A DNA stretch of 64,000 nucleotides from Yuukianura sp. NJ FZ-2021 (Eukaryota): NCBI GenBank assembly GCA_046563655.1, contig CM102284.1, forward strand, positions 7,254,001 through 7,318,000. Reading direction: 5' to 3'. How positions within the stretch are numbered: the stretch's first letter is position 1; every line of letters begins with the position of its first letter. The translations under genes were made by a program, and so were the position numbers. The notes beneath the pieces were generated by a model. The model did not search any database. It was not told the DNA's origin and was given only the letters and a program-made list of their open reading frames with translations. This document shows positions 20,981-57,612 of this stretch, in pieces.

Positions 20981-21365
20981 TTACATTGGAGATGGACGGG
21001 AGAGCAGAAAAGTAGATCGGAGATCGTACAAGGCGAAGAGGCAGATAGGAGTTTTGGTCTTGTGTGTTTTTTGAATGGGGAGAATAAGTGCCGGGAAAAG
21101 GGTTAGGGGCAGGAGGGAGTGTAGCCTTCTTGCTTCGCATAATCTCCTGTCAACTTTTCCTCTCTTCTGCCTATCCCCCAATGTTAAACTTCAGTTCAAA
21201 ATCAGAGTGGGTGACAAGGGTGGTGTGCAGTAACTGCTACTCCAACCACACAAATTCAGAGGGTGACAAGGATTGTGCAAGGAACTGCTACACCAACCAC
21301 ATAAATTATTCAAACACTAATTTTATTCATTTTACCGCTCTTTTCAAAACTCTTGTCTCAACATG
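20981..21365. repeat. Dispersed repeat family 1, copy 1
   Basis: Clearly similar to 57243-57612 (shared gccttcttgcttcgcataatctcctgtcaacttttcctctcttctgcctatcccccaatgttaaacttcagttc). Contains two imperfect tandem units gggtgacaagg..aactgctac..aaatt. Confidence 0.85.
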
Positions 21366-33506: not shown

Positions 33507-36500
33507 ATGGTTTCACCGGAAGCAGGAATTGGTCGAGTCAGGAATTTGAGAGTACTGCTAGCAGGAGTGCTGCAATCTTCAAAACGTTTCAAAATGTTTC
33601 CAATACGTTGGAAATGGCGGAGGACCAGAGTTTACCATGTTATGGTGACTAGTATTTTTATTACTGTGTTTTTAGTTTCTATTTCTACAGTTTCAAGTTC
33701 AGTGCTAAGTGGTTCTTCTACAAAATCAAAACACATCGCTCATCATCAGCGTCATCAGCATCATCAGCAGCGGCTCAAGGTACGTACATTGTCTTTTTTT
33801 TTGTTATAAAACTAATTAGTTAATTGAATTACTAAAGTTGATTCAAAATCAGAAAATCTTAATTTTTTGATTTCCAAAAACTATTTCAACGCCACACGAA
33901 ACAGGTGTTGGAAATCTCGTAGCTTGAGAACACTTTTGCTAGGTTTTGATATTTTTTTGGCTGGCGTGTAATGATGTTTGTGTAACGTTAATTGAATTGT
34001 TAATTAATTTTGTTTCAAATGTTATACATTGAATTATATTGAAAAAGTTAAAAAGTTACATTTAATTCCCTAAATCAGCTTACGAAGTTAGTTTTGCAAA
34101 AAATTGGTTTTCCTGAAAGGTTTAAGCAGATAGCCGAATTTTTTGTTTCCATTTTGAAAAACAAAATTATGGGAATGACCCTAGGTGCGTCTTTAATTTA
34201 GGTGAGAGTGTTCCCATCTTTAAGTTTAAATGCGAATTTTTTCTTTTGCCTAGGGTTGAGTTTTAAGTTGATTTTTTGTGGGTTTTAGAGATGGGTTAAG
34301 CCGATATTAAAGTTAATTAACATGAAAGTTCAAAAAGGAAATTACCAAGGCTGAGAGTGCAAAAATATTTTGCAAAAGCCAAGAAACTTTTTTTTCCTGG
34401 GCTTTGGCAATCCTTATTCTGCAAAGATTTTTCGATTTTGCTAAATTTTTGCACAAAAATTTTTAGAACTGATGAGAAATTGAAAGTCTACAACTCACGC
34501 ATGATTCGTTTTCACGAGTATTTTGCTAATACGCTCAATTTAGCACCTTAATCATTGTAATTAATGTTTTTACTCTCCTTTTTCGCAAATTCATCTTCTT
34601 TTCTGGTGCGAAATGGTTGTAGAACCCACAGTTTAATCAGAGATGAATTCCTCAAAAGCGGCTTCAAGTGTGTGCCAAATTGCCAATTTAGTAAAAAGAA
34701 AGAAAGAGACAACGGCTGTGCTGAATCCTTTTCAGCTTCACGCTTCTCAGACTTTGCATCCTTTTTGCAAAAAATTCGCAAAGAGAAGTTTGAGCATTTC
34801 TTGGAGAATTTAATAATAATTCATATACGCATGAACTCTGTCGAATTTTTTACTTTTTGCAAAAATTGTTGCCAAAAAGATAAAACAATAGCAGATGCCC
34901 TTCTACTTTTGACGTTAATTTGTTCCTGGCAAGTGTCAAAGGTCAAGTCTCCCTTTCCGGTTAGGCGTTAGCCGTAAAAATTCTAATTCCTAAAAATTCA
35001 TTTTTTGTTTGAGTTTTGATTGAGAAGAGGCGAAACTAATTAATGAATTGTTCATTTTTAGCAGAAAGTGCGAATTTTATTTATGGATTTTGTTTCACTT
35101 TTAGTAAGGAGAGACCTTAACCTTGTTGCCTCGATCCATGAAAGGGGGCATTGACCTATTAATTACTTAATTGACACTTTTCAACATAAAATTTACAATT
35201 TTCAACGCTAAATTGATACTTTTGGAAAATTGAAAATTGCTAAAAGGAAAATAATTCATGACACTGATTAATTGAAACTGAAGTTTTGCCGAAGGTGTTG
35301 ATGAGAGATGGTTCTTTAATACTAAATTTTTTGGCAATGTGGATTCGGACACTCCTTGTGCCTATGCAAAAGTGAAGCCTATATTTCAAAATTTAGAGTC
35401 ATTTCAATTCAAAAGCGGGTTTTTAATCGTAAATTAAGCCATAATTTTAAATTACTTTCGACACTTTTCAATTAACGGGCGTCGCTTTATGTTATTTTTT
35501 AACGTTGTTCAATCAAATGGTGGTAAATCGGCTGCTCCTGGTTTTTTTTTTAGTTTAGTTGAGTTTTAATTTTGAGATTTTTTTTTTGTGTCCCTGACCT
35601 CATTTTAAATTTGACTTACGATTCGGTCATATAGGGTCATTTTCAAATTCGGAATAATGAAGCAACTCCCAAATGTCGCGGTTTGTTTTTGTCCGATTCT
35701 TAAACTTTGACCTCGCCCTGATTTTGGCAAAAAAAAAGTAAACAATTGTAAATGCAAGACATATTGAGACTGGGTTGATTGTTTTGTTTCTTATTTATGT
35801 TTACATTTGTTGTTTAATAAATTCAGTGGAGTGCTTTCCCTGAAAAGGAAGTGGAATTGTAAGGAACCTGACATGACAAAATTTCCATTTTGTATTTTAC
35901 TCCATTGTTCCAAAAGACTTCCTTGCCAAAACTACCTATTTGGTTCCATACACCCACCAACACGCACTTTTGAGTAAAGAAGTGTCAATTCCATTGTCTT
36001 TTCAGCAGTATGAACTCGAAGTGTGCTTGAAAATGGCTTGTTTGTAAAGAAAATTGGATGGCAAACCAAATGCTTTCTTTTTCTTTGGTCTACTGCTCCC
36101 GTTTAAAAAAACTAAAATAACAGTACAAAATATTAATCGAAAGGTTAGTTTTCTCTGGAGTACTCATTTGGTAGTTTTTTTTTTAAAGAAACTTCATTTT
36201 TTCAATAACTGCAACATTGGATTGGAAGTGAGGAGTTCTCAAAACGGATTTTGAATTTAATTTAAATGAAAATGCAGTACTAATTAGTTTTAAAAAGTAA
36301 TTATAACACGAGGAAATTAATAATCTTTTGAAAATTCTCATCGTAATTATTACATGAACTTGCTTTTGTGGAAATGAAAGTGAAAGCGTAAAAATTATGG
36401 TTTGTTCATAGTATTATTGCATTAGAGAGGTATTACCGTATTTTCCCAAATAGTACACCTGGTGTACTAATTTTGTTTTCGACTTCTGGGGGTGGTGTAC

Positions 36501-39500
36501 TATTAGGGACCTGGTGTATTATTAGAGACGGTGTACTAATTAATTTTTTAAGAATGAGGATTTTATTCTTAACTAAAACGTTTAGGAATCAGGAGAAAAT
36601 AATTTCTAAATTACTAAAAACTACTCCACTTCGTTTTCAGAATCAGTATCCACAGTGTCCAACTCGTATTCTTCTTCTCCACTTGAGTCAATTAACACAG
36701 TCACAGGTCAGATCATCGTTCATCCAACCATTTGAACTGCTACGAATTACGATCCCAGTTTCAGTTTGAAGCTTCGCTACCTCTCGAATTCCCTGTTTGA
36801 AAACGATGAATGGTTTCAGCTTTGTTCCGTCACCTTTGGCCGCTAGAACAAGCGTAGCGTGTGCCTTCTCATTTCCAGTCGACTTTAGTTGAACAGTTTT
36901 AGATCCAATTGGAGCAATTGTTGTGTTGCTCAGCATGTCGAACAACAGACTGGTTTCGTCCATTGCAATAATTTGTGATGGTTCGATCTTCGTTCTGTTT
37001 CCGTTATCCAATCCGTAATCCAGTAAAAGAGTGAATCATCCAACTCAGGGATCAATCGTTTCCGTCCACCGCCGATCAACCTTTTGTGTTTGACCTTGGA
37101 TGATTTCACGTTTGACACTATAAACAAAATACTGTTTCAGTACGAACGTAATAATGAGTAAGAACGTAAAATTTTTTATTTACAATAATTACTCACCTAA
37201 AGCATTTTCCTTTCTAATCCATGTCCGAATACTCTGTCGATCAATGTTGTATTCTTTAGCAGCTGCAGAAATTCATTTATCCTTGGCCAATTTCAACACT
37301 TTCAATTTGAACTCCAGGTCAAATGATCTTCTTTTTTGTTGGGAGACATTTTAAGTAAGAATACGAATTTTAAGTAAAACAATTCGGAGAGAAGTTACGT
37401 GGAGATAAACACAATACTACACAACAAATGAAGAGCTATAATATTAGCTCAACTAACTTCTCCGGGTGTTATACTCCTAATGCTATATTACCAAAGACCC
37501 TGGTGTACTATTTGGGACGGTGTACTAATTAATTTTTCGGCCCCTGGACCTGGTGTACTATTAGGGACCTGGTGTACTATTTAGGTATGGTGTACTATTA
37601 GGGAAAATACGGTATTTAGCTAATAATTGGCTTCCGATTCATGTCGTAATAATGTGGATGTACATAAATTAGTCTAAAACTCTTGAGGATGCAAGGAAAT
37701 GAAAGTTTCGAAATTCTTGTAATTTTGCATTTTGAAGTCACTTAATTATTTTGTGTATTTAAAATTTTTTTTTGGGGTAGAGTATTAGGTTTATGTTCTC
37801 CTCAACTGTTGAAAGTGTTTCACTGAACAGAATATGCAATTGAAAATGAAATTTGAGCTACTAAAATCAAAATGCAATGCAGTAAGAAAAGTAAAAAAAA
37901 ATTATATATAAAATTCGTCGTGTTTACTTTTCAGAATATTTTGGATGACCTGACGCCTGAAGAAAACAGACATATCTTTGGGAGTTCAAGCCCACCAAAT
38001 GGTAAGGATGCCATTACAGTGAATCAATATTTTCTGAAAATTTTGAAAATTTATAACATTTTTGAAAATTCAGTGCCAACTTTGGACATCATCAACCCAA
38101 AAATCCTCAGTGGAAAATTTCGGAGGAAGAGGTCAACAGAATTTTTAAAATCCGGAAGTGAAAGTGACGAAAAAGTGATAAATCTGCAAGGACTTGGACG
38201 GAATTTTCAGTTGACCCTGCGGCCTAACCCATCGCTTCTCAATTTAAACGATTTCGTCCACCTCTTCCGTCGTGACAATTATTCAGAAATCATACCAGAT
38301 CGAATCGTCAAAAGTCAATTGCACTGCTTTCACCATGGATCTGTCACTCATCGGCCAATTTCCACAGGTCAAAATCCAAAATACAACAAAGTTGGACTTT
38401 CAGAGTCAGAGGTCAAGAGAGGCCTTCTTGCTTTGGACATTTGCAACAACAGTCTGGTAAGGTTTTGAATTTAACTGTTATTTTTAATGTATAATTATAG
38501 AGATTGTAATTTAGAAAATGAAATTTTGAAACTGTTAACTTTCTCTGTTTCAAGCTGTGCCTCTTTAACAGTTTTTCTGTTTCGTCTCATCGCTTCAATG
38601 ACTTTGACACGCAGAGGATCTTCTTCATTTTGGCAACAAAACAGACACAAAATGTCATCGAGTTACCAAGACGATTCGATTTTTTTTCTTTTAACTAGAG
38701 TGGACATAAGGCATTTTTTCAACAAAATTTTTGAAACATTTCTAGAGCGGATAAAAACCGCTTTCATCTCAACTTTAAGCCAGTTTCACACAAACTATGA
38801 ACTGCAGGTGTCTTTTTTGTGCCACCTGCAGTTCATAGTTTGTGTGAAACTGGCTTAAAGTTGAGATGAAAGCGGTTTTTATCCGCTCTAGAAACATAGA
38901 GTAACCATGACGATTCGATTTTTTTTTCTTTTAACTAGAGTGGACATAAGGCATTTTTTCCATAGAGTTACCAGGACGATGCGATTTTTTTTTCTTTTAA
39001 CTAGAGTGGACATAAGGCATTTTTTCAACAAAGTTTTTGAAACATTTCCAAAGCGAAAAAAAAAACCGTTTTCATCTCAAGTTTAAGCCAGGTTCACACA
39101 AACGATGAATTGCAGATACCATTTTTTAAAATTTCGAAAATTATTCGCGAATTCACGAAAAAGTTAAATCTAGAGTTTTGTTTTCCAGAAATACTATCAA
39201 CCCTAATCTGTGATTCTGGAAAATGTGACTAGTAGTGGCGTGGATGTAGATAGTAACTATAGTTGTAGATAGTATATTTAACGTTTAAATTTACTTTAGC
39301 TGTGGTTAACTACTTAAAACTATTTGGAATTAAGTGAGATTTTATTTCACAACAGAGTTTAAATTCGCGAATCGGAAATACTCTGGATCTAACATCACTG
39401 ACCTCTGAAAATTACAGTTTTGTTACAAGTGTTACGAATAGTAGTTGGAACCTATACGTATGTAGTAGGTAGTAACTTAGATGTAGTTAGGTTTAGATGT

Positions 39501-42500
39501 AATTAAGTTAAGTATTAGTAATTAGAATTAGGAAATAGTAACTTTAGTTTAACTTTTTGCGAAAGCAATTTTAGCAGGAGGACGAATTGCTGGGTTGCTA
39601 TCACCTCTTCTGGGCATACTACTAGTCACCAGTTGTATCGTGACGACAGATATGGGCGGATATTTTGTCTCAAAACCCCTGCTTGTCGCAATTTTATTCA
39701 TAATTTTAAAAATTTAGAAGACTGAAATTTTTTGTGTGAACGTTGCTTAAACTTCGGATGAAAGCGGTTTTTTACCTCTTTTAACCTCTTTTAATTTGTT
39801 TCAAAAATTTTGTTGAAAAAATGCCTTATGTCCACTCTAGTTAAAAGAAAAAAAATCGCATCGTCCTGGTAACTCTATGATTTTTTCAACAAAATTTTTG
39901 AAACATTTCCAAAGCGAAGAAAAAACCGTTTTCATCTCAAGTTTAAGCCAGGTTCACACAAACGATGAATTGCAGGTACCATTTTACCATTACCATTAAC
40001 TACTTAAAACTATTTAGAATTAAGTGAGATTTTATTTCACAAGAGAGTTTAAATTCGCGAATCGGAAATACTCTGGAAATTACAGTTTTGTTACAAGTGT
40101 TACGAATACGTAATGGCCCTATCTTAGAAACCACGCTATCCCTCTTTCTCCCTCCTCTTATACCTCCAGCTTCCAACTAGTGGAGGGAAGGCGAGAAGAG
40201 AAATTGTCAAAACTCAACTCAATGTAAGAGTTTTGCACATTACTCGAAGTTTTACGGTAACCGTGGGAGGAGTGAAATGAGAAGAGCCAATCAGAGGAGT
40301 TTCTAAGATAAGGCCATTACTGTAGTAGTTGGGTTTAGCTTAATGGTTTCCTGTTTGGCTATGTAATGAAACCTAATCTTACAGTATTGTCTAATGGCTT
40401 TTCGCAATTTTATTCATAATTTTAGAAATTTTGAAGACTGAAAATCTAAATTTCATTTTTTGTGTGAACCTTGCTTAAACTTCGGATGAAAGCGGTTTTT
40501 TACCTCTTTTAACCTCTTTTAATTATAAGTAATACATTTCATCCAATTCTTTTCCGGGGGTAATAGTTCCGAGAATTGAGGCTGAATTCCCACGTTGGAT
40601 AGCTATACTAATTCGTTGTAGAAGGAAGGCGGTTGACTTCGGTTCGCCAGTGTAATCAGTAATACGATGTCCAATGGATTTGATGAGTTTTAAACCTTCG
40701 ACCCCGAATACTCCTGATGTTTCTTTTATACTCTTTTAATTTGTTTAATACTCTTTTAATATTTCTTTAATACTCTTTTAATTTGTTTCAAAAATTTTGT
40801 TGAAAAAATGCCTTATGTCCACTCTAGTTAAAAGAAAAAAAAATCGAATCGTCATGGTTACTCTATGTCTAGAAATGTTTCAAAAATTTTGTTGAAAAAA
40901 TGCCTTATGTCCACTCTAGTTAAAAGAAAAAAAATCGAATCGTCTTGGTAACTCTATGGTCTTGGTAACTCGATGCAAAATGTTGACAGAAAGGAAAAGA
41001 TGCTTGTCATTTTCTGAACTTTACGGAAGCTTTTTAGCTTTTAATGAATCCACGACTTTGACATGACAAGGAGGCAGTGACCTCGACTTTTATTTCGAGT
41101 CTCGAATTCCCCTGAGAAATTTTGTCATCATTTTCTCATTTTACACAAAAATTGAACTTCCGTGATCATTAAGTTTCACTTTCATTGTCTTAGACCTTTG
41201 AATTAAGGAAAACGGGAAGAACCACCATTATGGTGACAAGTTTTCTGAAATTTGAAAAATTTTGAAAAATTGTTTGTTTTGTTTTTCAGAAAGGCTTTAT
41301 AGTCCCGGTTGAACAGGATCCGGAACATCACTATGTCATTCACCCAGTCCCAAATCGTTTCCGGGCTTTCAGTAATGAAAATAATGAACAGCACGCGACT
41401 GCGTCTCGCAGGAGAGATGAACTTCCTGAACATTTCATTTGGAAAAGACAAAGCATTGGACAAACTTCCGCCAGTAATAGCGAACATGTTCGTTACCCAC
41501 GACACCGCTATGCTCCCCGCCCCACAGAATCATTTTGTGGACATGACGACTCTGATGATACGCACGAACCACAACAAACTGTGATGACCTCTCGTGACCT
41601 TCCTCTTGGCAGGACCAAACGAAGTCAACTGGCCTTTGACGACGAAGACTTGTCGCTTGAGCAACAACGGTTCCGTTACAAACCTAGAAATGTCGCCACA
41701 GACTCATACTGGCTTCGTCACCGCTCCACCACCGCGCCGCTTGATGACTACCACCCAGTTTCAAGTCACAGTTACAACAGTTACGGTCGCTGGGCAACAA
41801 ATGACAACCATGGACGACATGCTCATCGAATTGGACACTTTGCCCAAAAACAGCCAAGCCAAGAATTTTGGACTCCGACGAAAGGCGTGTCTTCTTATGA
41901 AGCTTACGACGTTCATCGTCACTCTCTGACCAACGATGCTCAACTTAATCTGCCAGGAGTACTTTCTGGTAGAGATGATTTGGATCGAAGCGGAAGTTCA
42001 TACAGGACAGCACTTCCGTTCCGCACGACTACTAAAAATAATTATGGAGCTCTTGCGGACACTGCCAGTCGCTGGCCGTCGTCAATCGATGATCAATATT
42101 ATTACTACAATGCTTCTGGATCTTTCAGTCGAGCTTCAGGTCAAGGTCAAGGTCACTTTCACAGTAGGTCAAAGCATCAAGATGATCGGAAAGGACGTGG
42201 AGACAATACCATTTTTGGTGAACCTTATCACTCTTCACTTGATTCTGACATTATGGCCACTGCCCAGTCGAGTACAGCGCAGACTCGTGTGGTCAAAGAC
42301 ATGGAACCTGCGCATTTGACAATTGAAACGGCGGTGTTTGTGGACAAAGATTTATATGAGCACATGCAAGCCAATTTTCCGGATGACACGCAAGCCGAAG
42401 TAAGCCGAATCGTTTTAGCAATGGTCAATGCTGTTCAACTGCTCTATCAAGATCCGTCTCTCGGACACAGAGTGGAATTTGTACTGAAGAGATTAGAAAT

Positions 42501-57242: not shown

Positions 57243-57612
57243 CATAGGAAGCTTTCGGGAGATCAAAAAAGTAGATCGGATATTGTATGAAACGAAGAGG
57301 CAAATAGGGGTTTTGGTCTTGTGTGTTTTTGTATGGGGAGGATAAGTGCCGGGAAAAGTATGGAAAAAAAGAGGGAGCCTTCTTGCTTCGCATAATCTCC
57401 TGTCAACTTTTCCTCTCTTCTGCCTATCCCCCAATGTTAAACTTCAGTTCAAAATGAGAGTGGGTGACAAGGGTGGTGTGCAGTAACTGCTACTCCAACC
57501 ACACAAATTCAGAGGGTGACAAGGGATGTGCAAGTAACTGCTACTCCGATCAAACAAATTATTCAAACACTAATTTCACCCATTTTACCGCTCTTTTTGA
57601 AAGTCGTGTCTC
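57243..57612. repeat. Dispersed repeat family 1, copy 2 (interrupted near its left end by the Transib element)
   Basis: Matches 20981-21365. Weak similarity continues left of the Transib (gagccttgtg at ~56080 versus gagtctttta at ~20974). Confidence 0.85.

Follow-up and report, generated by a model that had tools for sequence, protein, structure and literature searches.

Three P-superfamily transposons nested in an intron of an ADAMTS-like gene, and what may have drawn them together

Introduction

How do three transposons of one family come to lie one inside another in a single intron, and does such a family read its own ends as a target? The question is raised by a 64 000-nucleotide stretch of DNA from Yuukianura sp. 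NJ FZ-2021 (hereafter the window; G000:C2:7254001-7318000, in a 98.7 Mb assembly of this animal genome in 22 contigs), where element A contains element B, which in turn contains element C. An earlier note, made from the sequence alone, had assigned the three to the P superfamily and proposed that the family targets its own terminal inverted repeats (TIRs). We find that the nest is real: non-autonomous P-superfamily transposons are stacked in three layers within an intron of a gene for an ADAMTS-like metalloprotease. As to its origin, we lean towards separate insertions driven in trans, with a short-range bias towards resident copies superimposed on a general sink, rather than towards targeting of the TIR sequence. 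Positions without a contig name refer to the window. Papers are cited by PMC number.

Results and discussion

Anatomy of the nest

The intron splits the propeptide region of the gene (Pep_M12B_propep upstream, Reprolysin downstream) and is about 505 bp long once the nest is subtracted. The parts of the nest are listed here (TSD, target-site duplication; MITE, miniature inverted-repeat transposable element).

38457..41289, plus strand: predicted host intron, GT..AG, phase 0, from splice dinucleotides and frame read in the sequence
38648..38655, plus strand: left TSD of A, CAAAATGT, present as a single copy at the empty allele
38656..40975, unstranded: element A, a fold-back P-MITE, 322 bp when emptied, plus a 17-bp extra end
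40976..40983, plus strand: right TSD of A
38887..38894, plus strand: left TSD of B, TCTAGAAA, equal to bp 84-91 of A's right arm
38895..40867, unstranded: element B, a non-autonomous P element with 84-bp perfect TIRs, 1046 bp without C
40868..40875, plus strand: right TSD of B
38953..38960, plus strand: left TSD of C, ATTTTTTC, equal to bp 59-66 of B's left TIR
38961..39879, unstranded: element C, a 919-bp internal-deletion derivative of the coding copy described below
39880..39887, plus strand: right TSD of C

The nesting order is A > B > C, and each element is bounded by an exact 8-bp TSD (the chance of one exact 8-bp flank match is about 3e-5). Emptied of its guests, A consists of two 155-bp arms and a short central loop, both arms resembling the 3' end of the coding copy, and it matches four other copies at 317-319 of 322 bases. 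B belongs to the CATAGAGTAACCATG subfamily, and C is 88% identical to both ends of the coding copy (488 and 459 aligned bp). When the guests are removed, the interrupted hosts are restored: A without B shares 99.6% identity with an independent A copy (233 bp compared), and the end of B without C shares 99.5% with an independent copy of the B type (216 bp compared). The coordinates, the order of nesting and the three exact TSDs given in the earlier note therefore stand as written. Its statement that B and C both landed inside inverted-repeat arms can be made more precise: C entered bp 59-66 of B's 84-bp TIR, while B entered A's 155-bp fold-back arm at bp 84-91, where the family TIR has its inner edge. 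The ends of each element are indeed matched in variant, as had also been claimed, except that the right end of A is made of two stacked termini.

B carries two further guests.

40109..40322, unstranded: TA-flanked MITE unrelated to the P family, with an empty site in one relative
40523..40783, minus strand: 5'-truncated 3' end of a non-LTR (long terminal repeat) retrotransposon plus filler, at the inner edge of B's right TIR

The first, which from its ends we take to be Tc1/mariner-like, is covered by matches to six B-type copies and was thus inherited with the B subfamily. The second is absent from the one B relative examined; its long interspersed nuclear element (LINE) part runs to about 40723, and the remainder is about 60 bp of locally repeated filler. 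Captured gene DNA was considered as the source of this 200-bp insert and dropped, since the insert maps to a LINE: the fragment has 29 genomic matches, and the 99% copy at C4:9797363 runs on into an RVT_1 open reading frame (ORF). This fragment and the doubled right end of A had both been overlooked.

Independent reads and the empty allele

Four of the five public sequencing runs covering the stretch were compared with the window, three of these four being from one sample. These three show an empty site, with single-nucleotide differences from the window in the flanks; one 948-base contig joins 38647 to 40976, skips 2328 bases and keeps one copy of the TSD. The fourth run (X4) has zero cover at the insertion site and is hence uninformative. 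Since the empty allele comes from another sample, the whole stack is polymorphic within the species and the boundaries of A are confirmed. The inner nest junctions were not seen among the contigs listed for the four runs and are thus not confirmed by reads. The spacer between two neighbouring family copies elsewhere (C4:15354839/15354877) is also seen in one run.

A mis-assembly of the repeated arms is extremely improbable as the explanation of the nest. The region is strongly palindromic and, as just stated, the listed contigs do not cross its inner junctions; yet the three TSDs are exact and all different, the end pairs are matched in variant, the restored elements are at least 99.5% identical to independent copies, and the independent empty allele pins the boundaries of A.

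A coding copy with the same ends

A search of the genome with the PF21787 profile gave five matches, the best of which falls within an element of 5223 bp (C9:578303-583525) that has the TIRs of the nested elements at its ends and an exact 8-bp TSD around it. This coding copy contains a THAP domain (PF05485, E = 1.6e-5, over the cut-off), a helix-turn-helix region, both the N and the C parts of a split RNase H, and a GTP-binding insertion (PF12017, PF21787, PF21788, PF21789). Its sole match in the PDB is the Drosophila P transposase, 6P5A, of which the catalytic residues are D230, D303 and E531 (PMC7776569). Both catalytic aspartates align to the 6P5A motifs; the glutamate rests on a weak alignment of QDPLE to QDIVE (E = 0.38) that is backed by PF21789. 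The family TIRs start with CAT and finish with ATG, the first three nucleotides of P-superfamily TIRs being conserved (PMC2577343). Among 54 copies with paired ends, the TSD is exact at 8 bp in 47, has one mismatch in six and two mismatches in one. Judged by these sequence features, the family belongs to the P superfamily, as had been proposed, and the THAP/P transposase that the earlier note suggested looking for is found between the same TIRs. A hAT transposase on these ends would have spoken for another assignment; only a P-type transposase was seen between family TIRs, in a survey that did not include a genome-wide search for hAT families.

The two arms of A are 88-89% identical to the 3' end of the coding copy and about 80% to its 5' end. 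In the predicted gene model the frame breaks after the THAP exon and an in-frame stop follows the last catalytic motif, so the coding copy has the structure of a master but probably lacks its activity. A protein search returned 28 relatives at 33-52% identity, one of them named THAP9, and no close named family. The coding copy lies within a tandem repeat array (locus L052, G000:C9:576500-586400) and, ahead of the THAP exon, has an additional ORF for a charged product of 133 aa (L052:5653-6054, minus strand), with no Pfam match.

Around the other four PF21787 matches, all P-type transposase fragments (C5:2499788, C3:1347536, C11:794050 and C1:4096908), no family termini were found within 9.9 kb of sequence each; they may be other P families or domesticated copies. 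Two long elements, C10:602896-622610 (19.7 kb) and C12:73807-78194 (4.4 kb), have family TIRs and exact TSDs around interiors unlike the coding copy, the P copy being the only sequence with which these interiors were compared. The interior of the 4.4-kb element includes a piece of a LINE.

Census, subfamilies and target motif

Termini were counted genome-wide with a degenerate 17-mer (129 termini; none with the reversed control) and with a subterminal 21-mer (91 termini). A fuzzy scan of 572 kb, comprising the window and fetched stretches, gave 159 termini, which resolve into 54 TSD-paired copies. With 43 hand-delimited copies, which include probable segmental duplicates, these make a set of 97; three 17-mer matches without a downstream T-run (C1:3210912, C7:7662639 and C8:12906243) were excluded as likely chance.

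The end variants of A and of B each mark a subfamily with several TSD-bounded members, and that of C was found again at only a few other ends. This recurrence elsewhere in the genome bears out the earlier suggestion of distinct donor subfamilies rather than one copy hopping. The A subfamily is represented at seven distinct TSDs (window 38656-40975, C1:4684331, C4:9927260, C4:15354520, C5:1654041, C7:5114724 and C7:7034321). A near-perfect fold-back made of two 3'-type ends has thus moved repeatedly, and unlike ends seem not to be required in this family. A crude classifier of 5' and 3' ends, applied to all copies, was too ambiguous beyond A and was abandoned.

Ten of the 54 TSD-bounded copies are remnants of 72-86 bp, in which two ends of about 40 bp are joined at or near a TTAA palindrome.

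C1:2028473, C1:9387984, C3:1157198, C3:7808877, C3:10423413: 72-86-bp remnants
C4:6223940, C4:14759743, C4:15354877, C5:8844257, C7:1503254: 72-86-bp remnants

All of them differ from one another, which makes it likely that they arose where they now lie, through deletion or an aborted gap repair. The target motif derived from 43 insertion sites is weak and palindromic, with a leave-one-out mean of 1.2 bits against a background of -1.8.

Insertions into family arms

Three of the 54 TSD-bounded copies interrupt arms of the family: B, C and the A-type copy C7:7034321, which sits at bp 100-107 of an old arm detected by the local fuzzy scan only. The other 51 lie outside family DNA; one of these (C2:600976) landed on a foreign MITE that interrupts an old family TIR, at a distance of 22 bp from the terminus of that TIR. 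With about 22.5 kb of arm DNA and uniform insertion, 0.012 copies would be expected, and the excess is about 240x (P = 3e-7). The enrichment that self-targeting calls for is thus present, with two of the three cases in one nest, and there is a precedent in the Drosophila P element, whose TIR has a hotspot at bp 19-26 (PMC2577343). Two doubled ends, considered below, may moreover be collapsed insertions at TIR bp 10-17 and 3-10. What does not follow is that the TIR sequence is the target. Insertion density is the same just outside the arms (0.15 per kb in the adjoining 100 bp) as inside them (0.13 per kb), and the three hits begin at different arm positions (59, 84 and 100). The mean target-motif score of the arms equals that of the background (-1.8 bits), for which reason the TIR was rejected as a superior target; the arm sites actually used stand at the 83rd-96th percentile and rank only 30 and 19 of 152.

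Unrelated elements also enter family DNA, at similar rates per insertion. As a control we used an element with 258 5' ends, labelled Helentron-like by its likeness to elements in PMC4067079, which lies in family arms in five of 258 cases (85x; Fisher p = 0.14 against 3/54). One of these hits (C4:12158835) was judged by eye, having no BLAST hit, and a variant copy (C5:3753992) was omitted because it fails the exact pattern; with four or six hits instead of five, p becomes 0.10 or 0.19. The LINE found in B lies in family DNA in two of 28 copies, the query excluded (133x; p = 1.0 against 3/54). An edge hit of 32 bp at the empty site of A and a poly-A hit of 36 bp at a LINE locus (L146) were not counted as nesting. 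The notion that the family's transpososome strictly prefers its own TIR or arm DNA therefore appears unlikely to us. Since unrelated elements enter the family ends about as often, the stack likely reflects a pull to occupied sites and not recognition of the end sequence.

The Helentron/HINE-like family itself inserts at T-runs and has a 5' palindrome, a subterminal inverted repeat and a 3' hairpin; its copies are regionally clustered. At two loci it has entered a single P arm twice (C5:3709137/3710078 and C4:12159889/12158835).

Could the stack have arrived ready-made, B coming with C and the LINE, or all layers moving here as a unit, so that the intron itself would be no hotspot? Such a composite arrival is compatible with the other explanations, and we regard it as rather doubtful. 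The other sample lacks the entire stack, both A and B have intact outer ends, and the two further LINEs in family DNA are found where many other insertions have gathered; on the other side, no second B[C] or A[B] was found among the 54 TSD-bounded copies, although cut-and-paste need not leave one.

Crowding near resident copies

The spacing of the 97 copies separates the family from the control. Under a uniform expectation, the numbers of family pairs by gap are as follows.

0-100 bp: 3 observed, 0.01 expected
101-600 bp: 5 observed, 0.05 expected
0.6-2 kb: 3 observed, 0.13 expected
2-10 kb: 3 observed, 0.76 expected
10-50 kb: 17 observed, 3.8 expected
50-250 kb: 22 observed, 18.9 expected

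Eight pairs thus lie within 600 bp, against 0.06 expected, and both members of all eight were recovered by the genome-wide searches. The Helentron-like control lies within 600 bp outside a family copy in two or three of 258 cases (0.30 expected); for adjacency, the comparison of 8/97 with 3/258 gives a Fisher p of 0.002.

These figures bear on a pure sink, or survivorship, in which there is no family bias and selection in a compact genome simply spares insertions in or beside any transposable element. The excesses of the Helentron-like element and of the LINE in family DNA are what such a sink would produce, as are the LINE fragment in B's own arm and the 4.5-fold regional excess at 10-50 kb. 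Yet the adjacency of family copies within 600 bp is about 140x expectation, where the control reaches 10x at most; the family excess falls off over about 1 kb, and the control's own excess in arms is partly explained by its preference for T/A runs, which are 2.4-3.6x denser there. A sink with no family bias seems to us quite unlikely. The statistics are instead suggestive of a short-range pull, over a few hundred bases around resident copies, that acts on top of a general sink.

Are the neighbours offspring of one another? In local hopping with template switching, the donor gap would be repaired from another family member, leaving neighbours that are related and not twins; both local hopping and ectopic gap repair have been described for P elements (PMC7776569, PMC1562414). 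Neighbouring ends are indeed more alike than chance, with 3.7 mismatches in 24 bp against 5.8 for random pairs (P = 0.003, for 14 pairs that are not independent), and C3:7808877 and C3:7810022, which are separated by 1068 bp, both carry an end variant that none of the remaining 159 termini shows. However, 13 of the 14 neighbouring pairs differ, and simple local hopping, which would leave twins, was set aside with only one identical pair in 14. In the nest, A, B and C are unlike in ends and interiors, each has its own TSD and variant-matched ends, and each end variant recurs elsewhere. We consider local hopping very unlikely as the source of the nest.

The doubled right end of A

40942..40975, minus strand: exact 17-bp tandem doubling of the right terminus of A, bp 1-17 twice

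The outer copy (40959-40975) is of the A type (CATCGAG) and the inner copy (40942-40958) of the family-consensus type (CATAGAG). The doubling is missing from the six other intact A copies aligned and is the one clear case among the 159 termini; its length is exactly 17 and its register unambiguous. At C2:603109 another end is doubled, over 10 bp and with one mismatch, and its outer and inner types are again unlike. A genome-wide pattern search for excision footprints, as two facing termini within 24 bp (17+17 included), gave no match.

We see about an even chance that the doubled end is what is left of a fourth family copy, which would have inserted at bp 10-17 of A's TIR and then collapsed by recombination with A's own arm. 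That site ranks at the 85th percentile as a target, and a collapsed copy would explain both the 17-bp length and the inner variant. Somewhat less probable, if still a serious candidate, is a scar of the staggered cut known from Drosophila, where the P transposase cuts with a 17-nt stagger (PMC7776569, PMC2577343, PMC10983969): two 3' overhangs would have been joined end to end and filled in. The exact length and the lack of register ambiguity fit this well. A scar should however consist of identical copies, whereas the inner copy bears another variant; 17+17 footprints are absent from the genome, the only other doubled end measures 10 bp, and the case is single. There is a small chance that the doubling arose by something other than a collapse or a cut.

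A reading of the nest

In the mechanism we favour, each layer would have been inserted on its own by cut-and-paste, mobilised in trans by the THAP/P transposase of the family. Incoming copies would be attracted to the few hundred bases around a resident copy, where they would do no harm, without the TIR sequence being read as a target. The short-range bias might come from transposase already bound to the resident ends, or from the open A/T-rich DNA around them, and the general sink beneath it would also catch unrelated elements.

Several points weigh against this. The one coding copy with family ends has a frame break and a premature stop, and so is probably not the actual mobiliser. The counts are small (three nested copies, eight adjacent pairs) and come from surviving insertions in one assembly, in which targeting and survival are inseparable. 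The uniform null ignores selection, and 43 of the 97 copies are hand-delimited and include probable segmental duplicates. Counted by cluster, the likeness of neighbours weakens, with seven of ten clusters being of one clade, against 4.3 expected (P = 0.07). Finally, if both doubled ends are collapsed insertions, the hits inside TIRs rise to five and strict TIR targeting is strengthened.

More speculatively, and rather improbably in our view, transposase sitting on the end of one copy could recruit a relative from another subfamily, which would land on either side of that end at a distance of up to about 100 bp; the right end of A would then be a fourth hit, or the product of a 17-nt cut conserved far outside Drosophila, and fold-backs would move with two like ends.

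Other features of the window

A TA-flanked element with TIRs (36436-37612), which we presume to be pogo-like, lies upstream of the last exon before the intron of the nest; on the minus strand it contains a fragment of DDE_1 (36688-37035, E = 0.003, below the cut-off). Two similar tandem pairs with a 51-bp period (21209-21307 and 57462-57560), each followed by an AT-rich minisatellite, are probably two copies of another repeat.

Comparison with known systems

The closest parallel is the P element of Drosophila melanogaster (6P5A; PMC7776569, PMC2577343), with which the family has in common the 8-bp TSD, the CAT...ATG termini and a palindromic target motif. The transposases share the THAP domain, the helix-turn-helix region, the split RNase H, the GTP-binding insertion and acidic residues at the three catalytic positions, and both families re-insert into or next to existing elements. 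They differ in TIR length (31 bp in Drosophila, about 84 bp here) and in target motif, which is GTCCGGAC in Drosophila and weak, A/T-rich and GTT..AAC-like here. The nested hits lie at bp 59-107 instead of at the Drosophila hotspot of TIR bp 19-26, for which re-targeting of a 'safe haven' has been discussed (PMC2577343), and, unlike in Drosophila, no pair shares one TSD. The ends of Drosophila P differ in spacing, whereas the mobile A subfamily has two 3'-type ends. P dimers are known to arise by double insertion (PMC5932611), and P self-insertions have been described (PMC4744444).

The P-MITEs of Anopheles gambiae (PMC1562414) are likewise small non-autonomous copies, in several subfamilies, with the TIRs and subterminal regions of a P master and an 8-bp TSD. 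The TIRs are longer in our family, which adds the fold-back A and the 72-86-bp end-joined remnants; the accessible text of PMC1562414 does not report a P-MITE nested in the arm of another. In a partial literature search, with most subscription journals outside its reach, we found no natural P-MITEs nested in each other's TIRs and no 17-nt P cut outside Drosophila. If the doubled end of A is indeed a cut scar, it would extend the 17-nt cleavage by P transposases beyond Drosophila.

MITE multimers of rice (Castaway, Gaijin), maize and mosquito are nested or adjacent through independent insertions, as here, and some of these families self-insert while others are hit by many families (reviewed in PMC5172404). 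They belong to other superfamilies, in genomes with thousands of copies, compared with about 100 copies here. Galileo (PMC2775673) is a long-armed P-type element that has, like ours, collected nested DNA transposons and a LINE fragment; the guests shown there are of other families and lie at inversion breakpoints, and its TSD is 7 bp.

P elements are thus known to re-insert near or into P ends, both in crosses and in populations of Drosophila, and multimers of MITEs have been described in plants and mosquito. If the crowding described here holds among new insertions, it would tell targeting tethered to resident ends apart from survival in safe places, a distinction long at issue in the study of transposon target choice. 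Neither the self-insertion of P nor the MITE multimer is new to the literature; what the present locus brings is a natural low-copy P family, in another animal, at a polymorphic site.

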